A stretch of DNA of 64,000 nt, taken from positions 2,677 through 66,676 of the forward strand of contig JADGAV010000009.1 in NCBI GenBank assembly GCA_015231825.1, given 5' to 3'. Under the pieces are notes generated by a model. It made no database searches and was not told the DNA's origin. It saw only the letters and a list, made by a program, of their open reading frames with translations. This DNA comes from SAR324 cluster bacterium. Lineage in GTDB: Bacteria > SAR324 > NAC60-12. This document shows positions 8,308-63,152 of the stretch, one piece after another; the first letter of the stretch is position 1; each line of letters starts with the position of its first letter. Made by a program: the position numbers and the translations under genes.

Positions 8308-9420
8308 ATGTACGATGCATCAAGAACCACCATTCCGGCAGAACCATCACAAGAAAGTGGACTTTCGCTCAATGTCAATCAGCAATTTCGTACACAGGCC
8401 AGAGATGTTTTGAATCGACTTGAAATTGTGCGGGGTGAATTGAACAGTTCCGATTCGTTTCTTCCGCTTTTTCAATCGGTGCGAGCCAAAGTGATTGATC
8501 ATGCCTTCAATGGGAAGGATCCTGATTTGGATGTGGACTCTTTAATCAAATTAACCGGTCCTAATAAAAGTGAACTGGATTTTGAAATCTTTCGCCCCAG
8601 TCAGATTCAGAAATGCACTCCCATGCACTTCGAAAAGAGGACGCATCTGAAAATCGGCAGGACTATTCTCAATCTAAAAGAACTTCGAAAAGCTTATGGC
8701 GGATTTCAGCTGCAGGAGTTGGAAGATCAATTGCAGAGTTATCTGGAATTGAGCAGTGCCTTTGTTCTTCGTCAACGTTTGATTTCTTTATCAAAAAGTT
8801 CTAACTTCCAAGCCTATTTGCAGTTGAAAAAAGAATTTTTGGAAGAGTGGACGGAATCTCAACAAGCCCTTCAGGGAAAGTTCAATGCGACACCTTTAGT
8901 CGATATGGATTTGTCGGACACGATGAAGGCGCTCTCTCAACAGAAACCGATGATTGTCCAGAAACCGCAGGTGCTTCGCTTCACGGATTATCAGTTCTTT
9001 CGACAATTCAACACCACGACTCATCAGCATGTTCATTCCAATAGTTTGGATTTTTGGAAAACAGAAAAGAATCGGGATTATTTCCATCAGATGATTACAT
9101 CGATTCGTCAAAAATTTCCGGTCGATGCTCCTTTTCATATATTCCGTTTTGAAAATTCGTTCACTTACTTTCTTTGCGGATTTTCAGATGAGTGTGTGTC
9201 CGAGGCGATTCTCCAGGACCAGGAATACGCTCCAGTCCACGCAAAAATCATCATGCGTCAAAGCAATAAATCATACCGCGAACTGCAGTCCCAGGATGCA
9301 GGCAACCGCACCCTTTACTTCAATTGCCTCAAGGAAGCCATGCTTCCCTTTGTTGAGGAACTCAGTCAACGGCTTCAAATGAATTTGCCGACAGATTTTG
9401 TTGGATTTTTTAGAGTGTGA
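8308..9420 (+). CDS. Hypothetical protein (370 aa)
   Basis: Long ORF with ATG and AAGGA RBS; no family recognised. Confidence 0.7.
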   Translation: MYDASRTTIPAEPSQESGLSLNVNQQFRTQARDVLNRLEIVRGELNSSDSFLPLFQSVRAKVIDHAFNGKDPDLDVDSLIKLTGPNKSELDFEIFRPSQIQKCTPMHFEKRTHLKIGRTILNLKELRKAYGGFQLQELEDQLQSYLELSSAFVLRQRLISLSKSSNFQAYLQLKKEFLEEWTESQQALQGKFNATPLVDMDLSDTMKALSQQKPMIVQKPQVLRFTDYQFFRQFNTTTHQHVHSNSLDFWKTEKNRDYFHQMITSIRQKFPVDAPFHIFRFENSFTYFLCGFSDECVSEAILQDQEYAPVHAKIIMRQSNKSYRELQSQDAGNRTLYFNCLKEAMLPFVEELSQRLQMNLPTDFVGFFRV

Positions 9421-9512: not shown

Positions 9513-10574
9513 ATGAAATTTGTTGATTCGGTTAAGATCCATGTGCGCTCCGGCAAGGGTGGCGATGGCTGTACTTCGATGCGTCGCGAAAAGTACGTTC
9601 CTCGAGGAGGGCCGGATGGCGGCGATGGAGGAAAAGGCGGTGCTATAATTTTCCAGGGAGATCTTCAGAAAAATACACTCCTGGATTTGTCTTTCAATCA
9701 ACATCAGCATGCCAAAGACGGAACGCCGGGTTCCGGTAAAAACCGGCACGGGAAAAATGGAAAAGATCGTTTGATTGCAGTGCCATTGGGGACCGTGATC
9801 AAGGATATCGATACGGGGGAGGTACTCCTTGAGGTCCTTGGCGAGCAGGACTATCTATTTATCCAGGGAGGAAAAGGCGGTGCCGGGAATACTCGATTCA
9901 AAACAGCGACTAACCGTGCACCTGAATTTCACCAACCCGGAGAAGAGGGCCGGGAAATGTGGATTCGCCTGGAACTGAAGCTGATGGCTGATGTGGGCCT
10001 GGTCGGATTTCCCAATGCCGGAAAATCGACCTTGATCGGCACGATTTCTCATGCGCATCCTAAAGTGGCAGACTATCCTTTCACCACGCTGATACCAAAT
10101 CTCGGGGTGGTGAAAACCGATGCCTACGATGCTTTTGTCGTTGCTGATATACCAGGAATTATAGAAGGAGCCCACGAGGGAACGGGATTGGGGGACCGGT
10201 TTTTACGTCATATCGAACGCACGGCTATCCTTGCTATTTTATTGGATGTTTCAGGGTTTTCTGAGAAACCACCAATAGAAGAATACCTGATTCTCTTAAA
10301 TGAGTTGGCACTTTATTCTCAGGCTTTGATCGAAAAACCTCGTTTGGTTGTTTTAAATAAAGTCGACGCGGTTTCAGATTTTGAAGAACTGCGAAAAATT
10401 CAAGCGGAGCTGGAGGAAAAAAAGGAAACCGTTTTCACCATTTCTGCCGCAACTCGAGAAAACTTGGAACCCTTGCTCAAAACCATGGCGATGGAAGTCC
10501 GTAAGTATCGAAAACAGACTAATCCGGTAGAGCGGGAAGATTCAGATTTGGAAGCGGATGAGGAATCGATCTGA
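9513..10574 (+). CDS. obgE: GTPase ObgE/CgtA
   Basis: MKFVDSVKIHVRSGKGGDG, REKYVPRGGPDGGDGG, GFPNAGKST, DYPFTT, DIPG, NKVD. Confidence 0.97.
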   Translation: MKFVDSVKIHVRSGKGGDGCTSMRREKYVPRGGPDGGDGGKGGAIIFQGDLQKNTLLDLSFNQHQHAKDGTPGSGKNRHGKNGKDRLIAVPLGTVIKDIDTGEVLLEVLGEQDYLFIQGGKGGAGNTRFKTATNRAPEFHQPGEEGREMWIRLELKLMADVGLVGFPNAGKSTLIGTISHAHPKVADYPFTTLIPNLGVVKTDAYDAFVVADIPGIIEGAHEGTGLGDRFLRHIERTAILAILLDVSGFSEKPPIEEYLILLNELALYSQALIEKPRLVVLNKVDAVSDFEELRKIQAELEEKKETVFTISAATRENLEPLLKTMAMEVRKYRKQTNPVEREDSDLEADEESI

Positions 10575-11099: not shown

Positions 11100-11309
11100 A
11101 TGTCCGATAGCGTCTACAAAGTGATTGAGTTGGTTGGCACCAGTACTGAATCTTGGGAAAAAGCGGCACAAAACGCCATCAATAGAGCTTCCCAGAGCTT
11201 AAGGGAGTTACGAATTGCGGAAGTTGTTCTCCTGGATATGCAGATCAAGGATGGAAAAGTAGAGGCTTTTCGGTCAAAGATTAAAGTGTCTTTCAAATTT
11301 GAAGGATAA
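11100..11309 (+). CDS. Dodecin (flavin-binding)
   Basis: VYKVIELVGTSTESWEKAAQNAINRASQSLR...KIKVSFK; RBS AAGGAGG. Confidence 0.92.
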   Translation: MSDSVYKVIELVGTSTESWEKAAQNAINRASQSLRELRIAEVVLLDMQIKDGKVEAFRSKIKVSFKFEG

Positions 11310-11615
11310 TCTTTTCAAAGCCGCTTGAAAATTGGATGGGTCTTCTTGTCTCCATTATAGTCTGTAGCGGTTTTGATTGCTGCCCTTGCTCATGGGCTTG
11401 TCGATCGTTTACATCACCTGACTTGTGACAATTTGCTGTTCCCCTGATTGAATTCAATTTCTTCAAATACCAGATCTTTGAGGACTATGCAGAAATTAAA
11501 TTGTGTGCTCAGGTGAAGCTTGCAAATCAGCAAGATTGAGTTATGATAATAACTTCCATGGTCTGCTCAGGCAGGTCTTTCACTCAATAATAACACAATT
11601 TTAAGGAGATTCATC

Positions 11616-12086
11616 ATGATTGAAGTAGGTGCTCAGGCTCCTGATTTTAAATTGGCCAGCCAGCTTGCAGGGAAAGAATATACCCTGAGCCAATTTAAAG
11701 GCGAAAAAAATGTAATGCTGGTCTTTTATCCTTTGGATTGGACACCCACCTGAAGCAAGGAAATGCCGGATATTGAGTCGCGGATTGCTGACTTCAAAGC
11801 GGCAGATACCCAAGTTTTGGGTGTCAGTGTTGACAGTCGTTTTTCTCACGAAAATTGGGCAAGTTCTCTGGGAGGGATTTCTTATCCTTTGCTGGCTGAT
11901 TTTCATCCTAAAGGCGCCATGGCCTCCAGTTACGGCTTGTATATGGACGATAAAGGAATTACTGATCGTGCGACAGTGATTATTGACAAGCAGGGAAAAG
12001 TCCAGTTTGTCAATTCTGTTGGACCGGGTGGAATCCGAAAATCTGAAGAACTCCTGGCAGAATGCCAAAAAGTGAATGCGGGTTAA
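11616..12086 (+). CDS. Peroxiredoxin (AhpC/TSA, AhpE-like), probable selenoprotein with Sec at codon 46
   Basis: RBS AAGGAG, ATG 11616; MIEVGAQAPDFKL...FYPLDWTPT-TGA(11751)-SKEMP in frame with ORF 11763; TGA occupies peroxidatic Cys of PxxxTxxC; conserved Arg in DRATVIID. Confidence 0.88.
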
Positions 12087-12087
12087 T

Positions 12088-12330
12088 ATGCAACTGGAAC
12101 TATTTTTCTACAATGAATGCGGATTTTCACAACAGGTATTGAATACAATCAGGAACTTGAAGATTGGTGATCAGATTGTGATGAAAAATATCCGTGAAAA
12201 CGCAGACTATCAGAAAGAACTGGTTGATCTTTGCGGGGACGCTCAAGTTCCTACATTGAAATCAGATGGTGTTCCAATGCGTGAAGCCGAAGCAATCAAT
12301 CGGTTTTTAGTCGATCAGTTTGTTGATTGA
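12088..12330 (+). CDS. Glutaredoxin-like protein, monothiol CGFS
   Basis: FFYNECGFSQQV, AQVPTL; starts 1 nt after Prx stop; paralogous to 10618 ORF. Confidence 0.82.
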   Translation: MQLELFFYNECGFSQQVLNTIRNLKIGDQIVMKNIRENADYQKELVDLCGDAQVPTLKSDGVPMREAEAINRFLVDQFVD

Positions 12331-18164: not shown

Positions 18165-18611
18165 ATGGCGAAAACTAAAAACCAACCGGTTCTCAAAAAG
18201 AAGAAAACACTACCCTGGCAGGGCCTGCTCGCTGTTGCGGTTCTTGTTGTTGCCGTGGCGGCCTATGTCATCTGGGAATCGCCAACCGAAAAAGATCTCG
18301 ATTTGTCAGTTATCGACAAGGGCGTGAACGTTGTGGTGCAGGTTCATGACCCCAATTGACCGAGCTGCCGCGCATTAAAGCGAGTGGTCGACTCGCTCAA
18401 AGCAGAATATGAAGGACAAATTGAATTTCGCATTGCTGATCTGTCCAGCAAGGAAGGAGAGGCCTTTGCTCAGTTTCACCGGGTGGGGAGTGTGACTTTG
18501 ATGTTTTTCAGCAAAGGAAAGAAAATAACAAGCCTGCAGGGAGAACAAAGCGCAGATTTTTTAAGAAAGGCATTTGATCGCACCTTTCGTTTGAAAAAGG
18601 CAGCGGGTTAA
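18165..18611 (+). CDS. Membrane-anchored thioredoxin-like protein, probable selenoprotein (UxxC)
   Basis: ORFs 18153-18359 and 18384-18611 are in one frame separated only by TGA 18357; reads VQVHDPN-U-PSC-RALK; N-terminal basic stretch plus TM helix; Trx-like C-terminal part (VTLMFF..GK). Confidence 0.85.
18365..18405 (+). promoter_or_regulatory. Bacterial SECIS-like hairpin
   Basis: AGCGAGT(18379-85)-GGTCG-ACTCGCT(18391-97) perfect 7-bp stem, G-first loop starting 27 nt after the UGA, lower stem CTGC/GCAG. Confidence 0.75.
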
Positions 18612-52660: not shown

Positions 52661-53953
52661 TTATTCCGCTTTTTTCTTTCTGGGCAAAAGCGGCAGTTTT
52701 TTGGAAATCTTCCCTAAAGATTTCATAAAGCGCCCTTGTTTGATGTCGGATTGCGCAATTTCAACCTGGACGTTGACGGTTTCCGCCATATATTTTTTGT
52801 CCACTTTTTCTTCCGTATCCCAATCAAGGGTACGGCTATTGACTCCGGAAGGCAGAATTCCTGGCAGTTCATTTTTACGATTTGCTTTGACAATCTGGGC
52901 GTGGACAGCCACGGAAAGAGTACAGATTTGATTGAGCGTCAATGAAGTCAGTAAGTCACTTTCTGCTTTTCGGGCTCGTTTCATTGCCCCTGATTTTGCG
53001 GAATCCCTGCTTGTAAATTCTTCAGGAGAGCCGAAGCTTTTTAAATGAGCTGGTTTCAAATCATAAGTTTCATGATACTGGCGTTCTTTTTGTTCCAATT
53101 CAGCAAATAAAGTCCCCAACTTTTTGTAGTTTTGAATCTTAATCAGGTTATAGAGCGGCTGCTGGTATTGATGAGTTGCCAAATTTTCAACATCGACGCG
53201 ATATAGTTCCGAGTGCAGCCAGTATGTGAGATATTTCTGTTTCCACTCGAGGTAAGTGAGCAGTCCAGGGGTGGCTTTCATCCAAAAAATTAGCTCCCGA
53301 AATCGTTTTGTGATCAGCCCATATGGGTGTTCACCATGAAACAATGGCTCGCTTCTGGAAAGAATTTGTTTCAGGCCTGTTAAAAGATTTTGATCTTTTG
53401 GTACGGATTCCAAAGTGCTTCGGGGGATCATTTTCATGACCCTTTTTAATGTCTCCTCCGCCTTTTTTTTAAGCTCCTGACGCACTAGCTCCGCCTTTTC
53501 CGGAGCTAGTTCATCAAATAATCCACTGGTATTGAGAATGGACCTGATGACCTTGTAGGTTCCAATTGCTCTAGCAGCATAGATGCGTGTGATTTCTTCT
53601 TTTGCTTTAACCCCTCCGGTGAACAAGATTTTAATCTGTTCGAACATCTCCTGCGGATGACTGTAGAAGGGAGAGGCTTTTTGGACTTTCTTGAACTCCC
53701 CTTCAGAAAGGCTTTCCAGATAAGCCTGCAAATTTTTAGATAGGATTAAGGCTTCCTTAATACTCGCTTCATCAAAAACAAACCCTTCATGGGTTTCTAT
53801 TCCTTCAGATTCAGCGCCCTTTCCTGAGGCAGATATCTGCTTTGCCAGGTAATCAAAATAAGCTTCCGCGACATTCATGTAATCGTGATGTTCAGGATGA
53901 GAATCCTCTTCCTCAACACCCTCAATATCCATCCAATACTCTTCAGCGGACAT
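52661..53953 (-). CDS. Hypothetical alpha-helical protein (430 aa)
   Basis: Long ORF, ATG start, no family recognised. Confidence 0.72.
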   Translation of the reverse strand: MSAEEYWMDIEGVEEEDSHPEHHDYMNVAEAYFDYLAKQISASGKGAESEGIETHEGFVFDEASIKEALILSKNLQAYLESLSEGEFKKVQKASPFYSHPQEMFEQIKILFTGGVKAKEEITRIYAARAIGTYKVIRSILNTSGLFDELAPEKAELVRQELKKKAEETLKRVMKMIPRSTLESVPKDQNLLTGLKQILSRSEPLFHGEHPYGLITKRFRELIFWMKATPGLLTYLEWKQKYLTYWLHSELYRVDVENLATHQYQQPLYNLIKIQNYKKLGTLFAELEQKERQYHETYDLKPAHLKSFGSPEEFTSRDSAKSGAMKRARKAESDLLTSLTLNQICTLSVAVHAQIVKANRKNELPGILPSGVNSRTLDWDTEEKVDKKYMAETVNVQVEIAQSDIKQGRFMKSLGKISKKLPLLPRKKKAE

Positions 53954-57841: not shown

Positions 57842-58615
57842 ATGAGTGGTATCTACAATTTGGTTTCCGCAGGAAAAGCTCTGGAGCGAAAAATGGAAAT
57901 CAATACGAACAACCTGACTAACGTGGATACGGCAGGATACAAAGAAGATCACCTCACTTTTCGTGAAGTGCTCTCCACCGCAAATCGTGTGGTGCCTGAA
58001 TCCGGAGAGGAGCTTTTTCAGAGTCACGAAAACCTCGATTTGTATGTGGGGATGGATAAATCTTCCGTAATCGTCGATGGAATTGGAAAAGATTTCTCAA
58101 CGGGTCCAATGCGTTTTACTGACAATCCGCTGGATATCGCGATAGGCAACGAGGGTTTTTTCACGGTAGCAACCCCTCAGGGAAATCGTTATAGCAGAAC
58201 CGGTCAATTTACTATGGATATGAATGGAACAATTGTGACCAGTGATGGCTATCCGCTTTTAGGAGAAAAAGGACCAATTGTTGTTCAGGGAACCGATATC
58301 AAAATCAATGAGGATGGAGGAGTGGAAGTGGATGGTGCTGCTATCGACAAGTTGCGCCTTGTTCGTTTCCGAGATCCTGCCAGTCTTCAAAAATTGGGAA
58401 AATCATTTTATGCTCCGATCAGCAGCGACAATGTGCCGGTGCCTTCCGATGAGATAAAAGTGCGGCAGGGCATGATTGAAGAATCGAATGTCAACACGAT
58501 CACCGGAATGGTTAAGATGATTGACGGCAATCGAACCTATGAATCTGTGCGAAAAGCAATGACCACCATTGATCGTCTTGATGAAAAAGCGATTTCAATT
58601 TCTCGAATTGGGTGA
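57842..58615 (+). CDS. flgF: Flagellar basal-body rod protein FlgF
   Basis: NNLTNVDTAGYK, DFSTG, TDNPLDIAI..GFF, YSRTGQF, QGMIEESNVN; precedes flgG. Confidence 0.85.
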   Translation: MSGIYNLVSAGKALERKMEINTNNLTNVDTAGYKEDHLTFREVLSTANRVVPESGEELFQSHENLDLYVGMDKSSVIVDGIGKDFSTGPMRFTDNPLDIAIGNEGFFTVATPQGNRYSRTGQFTMDMNGTIVTSDGYPLLGEKGPIVVQGTDIKINEDGGVEVDGAAIDKLRLVRFRDPASLQKLGKSFYAPISSDNVPVPSDEIKVRQGMIEESNVNTITGMVKMIDGNRTYESVRKAMTTIDRLDEKAISISRIG

Positions 58616-58655
58616 TCCAGATTTTTATATTGAAACTATTTTTTAGGAGAGAACC

Positions 58656-59444
58656 ATGATGCGTTCATTGTTTACCGCGGCAACAGGGATGAAAGCCCAA
58701 CAGCGGCAAATTGATACCATTTCAAACAATCTGGCCAACGTGAATACCGACGGTTTCAAAAAGAGCCGTAATCATTTTCAGGATCTGCTCTATCACAATG
58801 AAAAACTTGCCGGAACACGCTCCTCCCAATCCACCCAAGTGCCGGTTGGGATTCATGTTGGTCACGGTACCAAGCATGTCACGACAGAAAAGATTCACAC
58901 TCAGGGAAATATGAAATCGACGGGCAACCAATTGGATCTCAGCATCGATGGACCGGGTTTTTTTATGATCCTGCAACCCAATGGTGCAATCGCCTATTCC
59001 CGTTCCGGACATTTTAATATTGATGGACAGGGGCGTTTGGTGACCAATGACGGCATGCCGATGGATCCAGAAGTGATCATTCCACAGAACACCCGGAAAA
59101 TTGAGATCGGTTTGGACGGCAATGTGAATGTATTTTTGAGCGATGTGAACATCCCTGAATCTGCTGGAACTATTCAATTGGCACGTTTTCCCAATCCGGC
59201 AGGATTGACGCCCATAGGGAAAAACCTGTATGTCACCTCCCCTTCCTCAGGTCAAGTTGATGTTCAAGATCCCGGGGTCGAAGGAATGGGATCGCTCAAT
59301 CAGGGATTTTTGGAAGGTTCGAACGTTTCGGTCGTTGAAGAGATGGTGAATATGATCACGGCTCAGCGAGCCTATGAGGTCAATTCCAAAGCGATTCAAA
59401 CTTCTGATCAAATGCTGCAGGCGGTCAACAATCTAACTCAATAA
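58656..59444 (+). CDS. flgG: Flagellar distal rod protein FlgG
   Basis: MMRSLFTAATGM, NNLANVNT.GFKKSR, FQDLLY, LEGSNVSVVEEMVNMITAQRAYEVNSK. Confidence 0.95.
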   Translation: MMRSLFTAATGMKAQQRQIDTISNNLANVNTDGFKKSRNHFQDLLYHNEKLAGTRSSQSTQVPVGIHVGHGTKHVTTEKIHTQGNMKSTGNQLDLSIDGPGFFMILQPNGAIAYSRSGHFNIDGQGRLVTNDGMPMDPEVIIPQNTRKIEIGLDGNVNVFLSDVNIPESAGTIQLARFPNPAGLTPIGKNLYVTSPSSGQVDVQDPGVEGMGSLNQGFLEGSNVSVVEEMVNMITAQRAYEVNSKAIQTSDQMLQAVNNLTQ

Positions 59445-59461
59445 TTTATAGAGAAAAGACG

Positions 59462-60454
59462 ATGCGATTCTTGAGAAAAATGATATCCTGGGGAGGAATG
59501 TGGGCCTTGCTTTCTGCATCCACGGCATTGGCTGCTTCGAACTCAAATCTTGTCAATGACTATGAACAGGTACAAATTTTTCTTTCTGAAGAAAGTATTG
59601 TTGAAAAATCCGATTATACATTGGCAGAGATCGCCAACGTGGAAGGGGCAGATCCAGTATTTCTGGAAAAACTGGCCAATGTCGTTATGGGGCGCTCACC
59701 CCTGCCGGGCGGTTCTATTGTCATCAACCGATCATTGATTATTACAAAGCTCCGTCCCTACATTCATTCAGAGAAACTGGCTTTTGGAGGAACGAATAAA
59801 ACGACAGTGCGACGTTCTGCCTTGCGGGTAAGCGGGGATGATATCGATCAGGCGGTTCTCAATCATGTTGCCTCAGAAATGGAAGGGAATGATTTTAAAA
59901 CGAAGCTTGTTTCTCAAAGTCGCGATGTTTTTCTGCCGAGGGGAACGTTGTCATTTGAGGTGAAGCTTCGTGGAAAATACAAAAAAGAAGGAGGATACCG
60001 AAATTACGTTGTCGAATTTAAAATTGATCAGAAACTGATCAAAAAAGTTCCCATTCGGGTCTATGTGAAAATTTATAAAGATGTATATGTTGCCAAAGAT
60101 ACAATAAAACGGGATCACCTGATTCAAGACGCTGATTTGACAAAAATCAGAAAGAACGTAGATCGGCTGCCAACAAACTATGTTCTTGATAAATCAACGC
60201 TGGTCGGCAAGATTGCAAAACGTTCAATCAACCCCAACGAGGTGCTCCATAAAAACACGGTGACCACAGCTCCGATTATCAATTCCGGGGATCAGGTGAT
60301 GATCGTATATGAAACCCCAAATCTACGCCTGACCGCACCCGGAATTGCCATGCACAAAGGACGACTTGGAGAACGGATTTCAGTGCGCAATACGGTTAGT
60401 AAAGCATTGCTTCAAGCTATAGTAAAAAACAAAAACTTTGTTCAAGTTAATTGA
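59462..60454 (+). CDS. flgA: Flagellar P-ring chaperone FlgA (long form)
   Basis: Signal peptide, N-terminal extension with LGRSP-like motif, SAF domain, GDQV...G.AM..G..GE.I.VRN. Confidence 0.85.
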   Translation: MRFLRKMISWGGMWALLSASTALAASNSNLVNDYEQVQIFLSEESIVEKSDYTLAEIANVEGADPVFLEKLANVVMGRSPLPGGSIVINRSLIITKLRPYIHSEKLAFGGTNKTTVRRSALRVSGDDIDQAVLNHVASEMEGNDFKTKLVSQSRDVFLPRGTLSFEVKLRGKYKKEGGYRNYVVEFKIDQKLIKKVPIRVYVKIYKDVYVAKDTIKRDHLIQDADLTKIRKNVDRLPTNYVLDKSTLVGKIAKRSINPNEVLHKNTVTTAPIINSGDQVMIVYETPNLRLTAPGIAMHKGRLGERISVRNTVSKALLQAIVKNKNFVQVN

Positions 60455-60490
60455 TTTAATCGATTCGCTTTGTAAAAGAGAAGATCTCTA

Positions 60491-61231
60491 ATGAACAGGA
60501 TGAAATTCATTTCTTTGGGTACCCTTATATTTATTCTTGTCATCGGCACCGGATTGGGAGGGTGCAATCTTCTCCAAAAAGCGCCTCCTCCCCAAAAACC
60601 GACCAATGTCAGCAAATCTCCTGCCAACCGGGCAAAATACCAAAGACGTCCGCGCATTTCCACACAACGAAACTTGTATGAAGGATCACTTTGGAGAAAT
60701 GAATCGTCTTTTGGAAATTTATTGAGGGACCATCGCGCGCGTTTTCGTCATGATTTGTTAACGATCAATGCAGTGAAAGAAATTGTTTTTGTTCCTCCTC
60801 CCAAAGAGAAGGCCCCTGAAACAGCGACAACCGATATTCAAAAAGCCAGTGCAGCCTTGGAAGCTTTGTCTCTAAGAGATACACTGGAAGAAGAGCAAAA
60901 CGAAATATTAAGAAATCTTGACACCATTTCTGCAGAAGTGATCCGGGTGCTGCCCAATGGCAATATGGTGGTTCGCGGTCGTAAAGTCGATCACCGGCAA
61001 CGCAATCAAGTCCGCTATGTCACGACGGTCCAGGGTATTTTGAGGCCGGCTGATGTCAACGACACCAATGTGGTCTCTGCTGAAAAACTGGTATATCCGG
61101 AAGTCAAAATAAAACGTCAAATTCTCGGTAGCCTGCTCAGAACCAAATTGAGTTCCTTAGCTCCTCTGCTTGGAAAGCAATCTGCCGGACTACTGGAAAG
61201 ACTCAGCGACTTCACCAAAACAAAAAAATAA
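60491..61231 (+). CDS. flgH: Flagellar L-ring protein FlgH, divergent
   Basis: Lipobox LGGC, GSLW, RDHRAR..DLLTI, ISAEVIRVLPNGNMVVRG, GILRPADV..TNVV. Confidence 0.75.
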   Translation: MNRMKFISLGTLIFILVIGTGLGGCNLLQKAPPPQKPTNVSKSPANRAKYQRRPRISTQRNLYEGSLWRNESSFGNLLRDHRARFRHDLLTINAVKEIVFVPPPKEKAPETATTDIQKASAALEALSLRDTLEEEQNEILRNLDTISAEVIRVLPNGNMVVRGRKVDHRQRNQVRYVTTVQGILRPADVNDTNVVSAEKLVYPEVKIKRQILGSLLRTKLSSLAPLLGKQSAGLLERLSDFTKTKK

Positions 61232-61475: not shown

Positions 61476-63152
61476 GTGAAAAAACCAGAAACATTGAGTA
61501 TTGAAGAAGTTGAGCAAAAGGAAGAAGTCATTACTCTTCCTGAATCTGTGTCGAGGATTCTCACTCCTGAAGAAATCATTGTTTATGAGAATGAGACAGT
61601 AAAGTTTCTTTCAGTTGCAGTTGACATTTCCTTTGAGACACGTTTGATGGCCTTAACCCTGCTGAAGACACTTTCTCATCTTTCAGGAAACAAAGATCCA
61701 TTGTTTAGTACTTTTGAAAGAATTCCTTTTAAGAAACATCGTTTACTTTACTATGTGGTGCCTTTTCTCTCCGAAATTGCAGGAAAAGGGAACTTGCTGA
61801 AGTGGTATCAGGAGGAAGCGGAGTACGCAACGGAACTGGAAAAGAAAAAAGGGGATTTCGGACTTCTCGAACATCTGATTTACCTGTATGAATCGGTGAT
61901 CTTTCGAATGGTGATGGATAAAAAAAACCGAGACAACTATTTGCTGCTTGCGGAGTCGGTTTTAAAAGAAATTAGGGAGAATCTGCAGGATCTTCAGATC
62001 GCGTTTGAGAAAAAGGACGTTCAGCATTCATGGATGAGTTTGGACAAATCGGCGCTGATTGCTTTTAAGAAAATTATCAATACCTGGAAAACTATTGTTA
62101 ATGTGACAACAATCCGGCACGGAGGACATCTCCCGGTCCAATTTCGGAGACCACCAGGAAAACTGCCTTTTGAATGGGCCGAACTGATTCGGATTAAAAA
62201 GGCGAATAAAGTCAGCATGATTAACGCAATCTATCCGCTTCGAGGACTGTCATCGCAGTGTCGGGAAATTCGAACCTACAGTTCCTTTATCCTGAATCGG
62301 GTTTGCGAGGAACGTCCTGGTTTTTTAGAAAGCCTGAAACACTCCAAGGTGGAGAGATCATTTGTCAATCGATTGAGGGTGGCGTATCAGATTAATAAAA
62401 AATATCCGATCATTCCATTGGACGTGCCTGGTCAGTTTCAACAGGAAATGTTCTTGATTCTGATTGAATATGCCATCAATAGTCTGGCGAAAAAATTTGA
62501 ACTGGGTGACAAAGGAAAAGAGGATCTTCAGGAGAATTTGTCTAAATTCAGTGAACACGTTCAGACCAAAGATGAAGTGAACATGGAGGAGGTTCTGGCA
62601 AAAGATGAAGTTATTGAGCCTGAACCCCCGAAGGAAGAAAAAGCGAAATTTGCTTTGGAAACAGATTATCCTGCTCTGACGGATGATCAGGAATTGGGAA
62701 TGGGAATGCAGACGATGCCCTTTATCTTTCCATTCACATACGAAGACGAGCAGGAGGAACTGCCCCTGGAGCACGTTCCGAATATCAAGTGGGATGAAAT
62801 GAAATGGAACGCAATGAATGCCCAGGGAGTCAAACTTCAGGTTGCCGAAGCGAAAATATTTGTCAAAAAACTGGAAATAATTCCCTCTTATCGTTATGAA
62901 ATTTTTTCTTTGAAAGATTATAAACCGATCAAGCCCTATCAGCAATTTTCGTGCTTTATTATCAAGATGATGCAGAAAGAAGGGGTACAGTATTATATTG
63001 CTAAGAAAGGGGGGAAGAAAAATGAAAAGGGTGTGTCTTCTGTGTTCATTGCTTTGGATTTGAGCGAACAATATCTTAAGAATATAGACCGAGCATTTTT
63101 TTTTATTTTTCCTGCACCCTACAATCAGCACATCCTGGCAATCCCCCGCTGA
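61476..63152 (+). CDS. Hypothetical protein (558 aa)
   Basis: Long ORF, GTG start after GGGAG; no family recognised. Confidence 0.72.
   Translation: MKKPETLSIEEVEQKEEVITLPESVSRILTPEEIIVYENETVKFLSVAVDISFETRLMALTLLKTLSHLSGNKDPLFSTFERIPFKKHRLLYYVVPFLSEIAGKGNLLKWYQEEAEYATELEKKKGDFGLLEHLIYLYESVIFRMVMDKKNRDNYLLLAESVLKEIRENLQDLQIAFEKKDVQHSWMSLDKSALIAFKKIINTWKTIVNVTTIRHGGHLPVQFRRPPGKLPFEWAELIRIKKANKVSMINAIYPLRGLSSQCREIRTYSSFILNRVCEERPGFLESLKHSKVERSFVNRLRVAYQINKKYPIIPLDVPGQFQQEMFLILIEYAINSLAKKFELGDKGKEDLQENLSKFSEHVQTKDEVNMEEVLAKDEVIEPEPPKEEKAKFALETDYPALTDDQELGMGMQTMPFIFPFTYEDEQEELPLEHVPNIKWDEMKWNAMNAQGVKLQVAEAKIFVKKLEIIPSYRYEIFSLKDYKPIKPYQQFSCFIIKMMQKEGVQYYIAKKGGKKNEKGVSSVFIALDLSEQYLKNIDRAFFFIFPAPYNQHILAIPR

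Follow-up and report, generated by a model that had tools for sequence, protein, structure and literature searches.

The peroxiredoxin locus

The window, which is the whole 64-kb stretch of SAR324 DNA analysed here, carries on its plus strand a peroxiredoxin gene with an internal TGA codon, followed by a small gene for a glutaredoxin-like protein. The coordinates of these genes and of the features belonging to them are given in Table 1. The peroxiredoxin reading frame starts as MIEVGAQAPDFKL...VFYPLDWTPT, meets the TGA at 11751-11753 and goes on as SKEMPDIES... to the TAA stop codon. This TGA is the sole interruption of the frame from the ATG onwards, and the ORF lister gives just the 107-codon piece of the peroxiredoxin that begins at 11763 (Met50). 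The ribosome binding site AAGGAG, the ATG at 11616 and the listed ORF at 11763 in the same frame, from which the first-pass annotation had assembled the gene, were all recovered when the coordinates were read directly. The promoter candidate upstream was the sole match in the region; it did not rise above shuffle expectation and is weak.

Table 1. Features of the peroxiredoxin locus and of the thioredoxin-like ORF in the window.
Feature	Position	Strand	Description and basis
Sigma-70-like promoter candidate	11520..11547	+	TTGCAA-16-TATGAT, ~70 nt 5′ of the start codon
Shine-Dalgarno sequence AAGGAG	11603..11608	+	7 nt ahead of ATG 11616-11618; read in the sequence
AhpE-like peroxiredoxin CDS	11616..12086	+	156 codons plus TAA 12084-12086; predicted Sec at codon 46
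In-frame UGA	11751..11753	+	Peroxidatic residue, TxxU motif, probably read as Sec; TGA in 42 loci, alignment to AhpE Cys45
SECIS-like hairpin inside the CDS	11764..11804	+	Minimum-free-energy fold, −15.3 kcal/mol
Lower stem UGCCG/CGGCA	11764-68/11800-04	+	Fold
Upper stem	11773-81/11787-97	+	9 bp with two bulges; fold
Apical loop GGAUU	11782-86	+	Begins 28 nt after the UGA
Conserved Cys150 of the peroxiredoxin	12063-65	+	TGC; sequence
Monothiol glutaredoxin/GST-N-like gene	12088..12330	+	80 aa; ECGFS, Cys11 = TGC 12118-20, cis-Pro VP
Membrane-anchored thioredoxin-fold ORF	18165-18611	+	Pfam Thioredoxin; TGA 18357-18359 in VVQVHDPN-U-PSC
7-bp hairpin after UGA 18357	18379-18397	+	Loop GGUCG, starts 26 nt downstream, −10.6 kcal/mol

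The product matched the Pfam family AhpC-TSA (PF00578) over positions 1-123 of the 124 in the profile (E = 1.7e-37), with a Cys put at codon 46, and its score of 128.6 bits (cut-off 26) places it among the peroxiredoxins. The catalytic positions P39, T43, U46 and R118 (CGT 11967-69) are all in place in the 156-aa protein. It had been claimed from the letters alone that the TGA takes the place of the Cys in the PxxxTxxC motif and that the catalytic Arg is intact. The second claim holds with R118, and the first is borne out by the full-length AhpC-TSA match and by alignment with AhpE-like homologues, in which the TGA falls on the peroxidatic Cys45 of AhpE.

The best match in the PDB was AhpE of Mycobacterium tuberculosis (1xxu, E = 6.9e-29). 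The top seven PDB sequences were all AhpE (104 bits) and the next was a 2-Cys peroxiredoxin at 85 bits. The protein is short and is without the C-terminal extension that holds a resolving Cys. Judged from its sequence, it belongs to the AhpE-like (short, 1-Cys-type) subfamily of the peroxiredoxins. Assignment to the PrxU equivalog (NCBIfam NF040737) was rejected, the score being 85.3 bits against a curated cut-off of 270.

An ORF of 155 codons on the minus strand (11601-12068) lies antisense to the peroxiredoxin gene. It is the plus-strand reading that is conserved, and the minus-strand ORF was therefore rejected as a real gene and set down as a shadow.

Elsewhere in the window, the Obg GTPase gene at 9513-10574 (+) is closest to those of SAR324-cluster MAGs (74-64% identity, loci L107-L139), which assigns the organism to this clade. 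In a SAR324 MAG, Obg and the Sec-type peroxiredoxin share one 14-kb contig (JADGAT010000090.1), with the gene order seen here. A small ORF of 69 codons at 11100-11309 (+) with the strong ribosome binding site AAGGAGG reads MSDSVYKVIELVGTSTESWEKAAQNAI... and may encode a dodecin-type flavin-binding protein, to judge by eye. The 322-codon ORF at 415-1383 (−), beginning PRPLRIEFPNAWYHVMNRG..., likewise resembles by eye an IS200/REP-associated tyrosine transposase, and a run of four ORFs at 57842-61231 (+) looks like flagellar basal-body genes, which we presume to be those for the FlgF/FlgG rod, FlgA and the FlgH L-ring. Three ORFs of 370, 430 and 558 codons, at 8308-9420 (+), 52661-53953 (−) and 61476-63152 (+), had no Pfam match at E ≤ 0.01.

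The TGA codon among homologues

When bacterial genomes were scanned, one per species, 80 related loci came up, to which metagenome contigs were added. The aligned codon was TGA in 42 loci (metagenome contigs included), TGC or TGT in 33 and GGA in a single one. The TGA-containing loci, referred to as Sec-type, were found in SAR324, in Pseudomonadales/gammaproteobacterial MAGs, and in Binatia, Thermodesulfobacteriota/Syntrophobacter, Acidobacteriota, Myxococcota and Planctomycetota, and span at least seven phylum-level groups. The closest relative of the peroxiredoxin found was 84% identical. The 33 loci with TGC or TGT, the Cys-type, are more distant and mostly from Acidobacteriota. The UGA is thus positioned opposite the conserved catalytic Cys of its homologues, and the two forms make up a Sec/Cys pair. 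Because 42 homologous loci carry TGA at the peroxidatic codon, its presence there is far beyond chance. P39, T43 and R118 are retained in every Sec-type locus, while the residue corresponding to T43 is Ser in the Cys-type loci.

The single GGA codon (Gly) was found at 2633-2635 of a contig from a Planctomycetota MAG (JAWKUH010000009.1, locus L038), where it replaces the Sec codon. The hairpin 3′ of it is still unusually stable (z = −2.4). The protein of this locus (P0041) is named a redoxin domain protein by NCBI. A recent loss of activity, an error in the sequence or a variant without peroxidatic function could each account for this codon.

The hairpin downstream of the UGA

The sequence following the UGA folds into a hairpin that lies wholly inside the coding region (Table 1). 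According to the bSECIS model quoted in PMC13188914, the loop has 3-9 nt with a G in its first two positions, the distance from the UGA to the loop is 16-37 nt and the minimum free energy is −7.5 kcal/mol or lower. The hairpin in the window agrees with all four of these constraints (GGAUU, 28 nt, −15.3 kcal/mol), and in 200 resamplings of the window sequence with synonymous codons no equally stable fold arose (z = −3.1).

The first-pass annotation had pointed to another hairpin, formed by AGCAA at 11754-58 with TTGCT at 11785-89 and an inner CCG/CGG stem. The minimum-free-energy hairpin that recurs in this part of the gene is that at 11764-11804 and not the one named. The latter can form, and was replaced by the former as the candidate recoding element since all five of its outer pairs are kept in just 1 of 36 distinct Sec-type sequences.

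The statistics of the hairpin were obtained from 36 distinct Sec-type and 33 Cys-type sequences. RNAalifold gave zero consensus pairs for the codon alignment of the 36 sequences because the paired register shifts between clades, leaving shifted partners. Therefore, folding of each sequence against synonymous resampling and a test of the bSECIS rules were used. The mean folding z was −1.96 for the Sec-type and −1.26 for the Cys-type (Mann-Whitney p = 3e-4), with the Cys-type controls likewise folding somewhat better than their own null. A hairpin at SECIS spacing was present in 34 of the 36 Sec-type sequences (null 52%) against 18 of the 33 Cys-type sequences (Fisher p = 1.6e-4). With the loop-G rule added, the counts were 15/36 (null 30%) and 7/33, and the result is not significant. 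Many bSECIS elements escape the bSECIS model, according to PMC13188914.

A second TGA and the Sec machinery

Another in-frame TGA, located 6.6 kb from that of the peroxiredoxin, was found in an ORF for a membrane-anchored protein with a thioredoxin fold. All 19 of its homologues carry Cys at this position, the first Cys of a CxxC motif (VQVHDPNCxxC), and TGA occurs there in none of the 19 homologues found. A second Sec protein within 7 kb had been proposed from the sequence, and it is confirmed as a Sec/Cys pair. The geometry of the hairpin that follows, with its GG-initiated loop of 5 nt, closely resembles that of the peroxiredoxin element. This would be expected if one SelB reads both. The second Sec/Cys pair lends indirect support to Sec decoding by the organism.

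No tRNA-Sec was detected by ARAGORN in the 64-kb window, which contains no tRNA at all, and Rfam gave no match on the window. SelA, SelB and SelD of E. coli had no tblastn match in the window or in 85 loci. In PMC5029168, the one paper among those searched that links SAR324 with selenium, two SAR324 single-cell genomes are listed as ‘orphan SelD’, with no SelA, SelB or selenoproteins detected. This listing implies that SelD exists in the SAR324 clade, where Sec use had not been recorded in the literature searched.

Alternative readings of the TGA codon

The UGA might be translated without selenium, either under a reassigned code in which it stands for Trp or Gly, or by a near-cognate tRNA inserting Trp or Cys. 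The best 120 public protein clusters (P0001-P0120) could be taken in this sense, as 39 of them have Trp in place of the Sec. The Trp is, however, an artefact of the gene callers. The DNA has TGA in both of the Trp records that were checked (L143 and L144), and under table 11 such records give no translation that matches the query. TGA is furthermore the commonest ordinary stop codon in the window, closing 18 of the 44 long ORFs (200 aa and above). The code is therefore standard and the recoding site-specific, and on this stop-codon usage a reassignment to code 4 or 25 was rejected. A peroxiredoxin with Trp or Gly as its peroxidatic residue would be inactive, and a site-specific hairpin combined with Sec/Cys pairing is the signature of Sec. 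Translation without selenium is accordingly considered very unlikely.

Less probable still, and in our view very hard to sustain, is that the TGA is a nonsense mutation in a pseudogene or truncated gene, from which just the 107-aa ORF starting at Met50 (11763), or nothing, is made. The same ‘mutation’ stands in 42 loci across several phyla, and a hairpin is present at SECIS spacing behind it. Translation from Met50 would give a protein missing P39, T43 and the peroxidatic residue itself. That 69 of the best 120 clusters start after the TGA, at a length of ~107 aa, is the work of gene callers, and this together with the lack of Sec machinery within the 64-kb window is what speaks for a truncated gene. 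Selection on the codons before the TGA speaks against it. With the window sequence as reference, pN/pS was 0.15 over the 45 codons before the TGA (23 comparisons) and 0.25 over the 60 codons after it. Purifying selection is no weaker before the TGA than behind it, and the decay of the upstream segment that a pseudogene would display is absent. The low pN/pS before the TGA means that the 5′ segment is selected as protein, in frame with the remainder.

Although TGA differs from a Cys codon by a single base, a sequencing or assembly error for TGC or TGT has a negligible probability, as assemblies produced independently, in many studies and with many technologies, agree on TGA at this codon; a closed chromosome of 4.26 Mb (L006) is among them.

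Besides the truncated and the Trp-containing records, the best 120 protein clusters included 9 with a true Cys and 1 with Gly; Sec was annotated in none of the 120.

Taken as a functional and intact gene for an AhpE-like Sec-peroxiredoxin, with Sec at UGA 11751, the locus 11616-12086 finds its best explanation, to which we assign a probability of roughly 90%. The selenoenzyme proposed in the first-pass annotation is supported by the TGA/Cys pairing, the selection, the bSECIS-type hairpin and the standard code, all of them properties of the DNA sequence that point to Sec insertion.

The linked glutaredoxin-like gene and Cys150

The ATG of the downstream gene starts one base past the stop codon of the peroxiredoxin (TAA-T-ATG). 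Its protein matched Pfam families marginally, with 22.6 bits for GST_N (cut-off 20.9) and 22.7 for Glutaredoxin (cut-off 22.9). Matches in the PDB were weak as well (DHAR2, E = 0.075), with alignments to the CPFS sites of DHAR/GST-type proteins. Across 19 homologues of the partner there is no variation in the ECGFS motif, with its single Cys, or in the cis-Pro VP motif. A profile search with the glutaredoxin-like partner found a small family of 421 representatives at E ≤ 1e-3, 33 of which were at E ≤ 1e-10.

Among the distinct Sec-type loci with enough downstream sequence, the partner was adjacent or fused to the peroxiredoxin in 28 of 36, compared to none of the 33 Cys-type loci. Natural fusions of peroxiredoxin and partner in a single ORF run through the TGA, as in L144, and MAGs of Acidobacteriota, Myxococcota and Planctomycetota have the two in one chain. 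Closer Cys-type fusions of the peroxiredoxin with the partner are present in the protein collection (P0045, P0049 and P0075). From this linkage, the glutaredoxin-like protein is likely to be the reductant of the peroxiredoxin.

Near the C-terminus of the peroxiredoxin, Cys150 was found in 35 of the 42 Sec-type loci. AhpE lacks it, and so do the Cys-type loci, where the position is occupied by Leu, or by Val in one locus. Of the partner-linked loci, 27 of 28 have Cys150, as against 3 of 8 loci without the link (Fisher p = 8e-4, with no correction for phylogeny). This co-occurrence with the partner suggests that Cys150 may take part in the recycling of the enzyme.

Relation to known systems

Peroxiredoxins with Sec in a TxxU motif have been known since 2001. 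An enzyme of this kind was shown biochemically in Eubacterium acidaminophilum (cited in PMC13188914), and other papers report Sec-peroxiredoxins among the selenoproteins of Syntrophobacter, Anaeromyxobacter and Geobacter (PMC1794560), 253 sequences among the most abundant selenoproteins of the Global Ocean Sampling data (PMC2398784), and, in a survey of 2016, 91 genes of the Prx (TxxU) family in 78 genomes (PMC5029168). The window gene is an additional member of this known bacterial selenoprotein family. In the surveys by Kryukov, Zhang and Gladyshev (PMC1794560, PMC2398784, PMC5029168 and PMC13188914), the family shares with it the PF00578 domain, Sec in PxxxTxxU and a SECIS right after the UGA, and also has far more numerous Cys homologues and an occurrence in marine metagenomes. 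The surveys, however, treat ‘Prx’ as a single family, whereas the protein described here is AhpE-like, is found in SAR324 and has a CGFS glutaredoxin-like gene linked to it; the passages searched in these papers held no mention of an AhpE-like type, of SAR324 or of such a partner in this connection. Nor did a literature search turn up any paper that links AhpE-type enzymes to Sec. The AhpE-like sub-family assignment and the partner linkage may therefore be new details.

Three characterised systems are close enough for comparison. PrxU of E. acidaminophilum also has Sec as the peroxidatic residue of a peroxidase with a thioredoxin fold, but is longer and AhpC/Prx1-type (its profile has 233 positions), unlike the AhpE-like protein of the window. 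AhpE of M. tuberculosis (Rv2238c; 1xxu/1xvw) is of similar size (~153 aa), has no C-terminal extension and has the same active-site layout, the alignment covering residues 1-142. It differs in having Cys, in the absence of an equivalent of Cys150 and in its dependence on mycothiol and mycoredoxin-1 (Mrx1), where the window has Sec and a monothiol CGFS partner in the operon or, in other genomes, fused. AhpE is reduced by the glutaredoxin homologue Mrx1 (PMC4360819).

The third system comprises the peroxiredoxin-glutaredoxin hybrids, represented by PGdx. Like the window locus, they unite the two kinds of domain within a single chain or operon, which by analogy would imply glutathione-dependent recycling. 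PGdx of Haemophilus influenzae combines a Prx5-type peroxiredoxin that uses Cys and a dithiol CPYC glutaredoxin, whereas the window has an AhpE-like peroxiredoxin with Sec and a monothiol CxxS partner.

Proposed mechanism and significance

The function of the locus may be depicted as follows. At UGA 11751, the ribosome would meet the hairpin 11764-11804, whose GGAUU loop 28 nt downstream is predicted to recruit SelB with Sec-tRNA(Sec). Termination would thereby be overridden and translation would continue to the TAA at 12084. In the finished enzyme, the selenolate of U46, activated by T43 and R118, would reduce a hydroperoxide and be converted to a selenenic acid. The latter could be resolved and recycled via Cys150, via Cys11 of the translationally coupled CGFS partner (12088-12330), or via both, with glutathione as the putative ultimate electron donor. 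Such recycling would have a parallel in M. tuberculosis AhpE, which mycoredoxin-1 reduces. A more far-reaching proposal is that the AhpE-like selenoperoxiredoxin, the co-varying Cys150 and the CGFS partner form an undescribed, self-contained, glutathione-dependent selenoperoxidase module that makes SAR324 a genuine user of Sec. We put this forward tentatively, as a possibility that we think has somewhat less than an even chance of being right in full.

What is known of Sec decoding and of peroxiredoxin chemistry is not changed by these results. They do reveal that a widespread antioxidant enzyme is systematically mis-called in the public protein collection. They also add evidence for Sec use by the abundant deep-ocean SAR324 bacteria and would revise the ‘orphan SelD’ listing of this clade. 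Finally, the conserved linkage to a monothiol glutaredoxin-like protein, in an operon or as a fusion, offers a testable hypothesis for how short 1-Cys-type peroxiredoxins and selenoperoxiredoxins may be recycled in Gram-negative bacteria.
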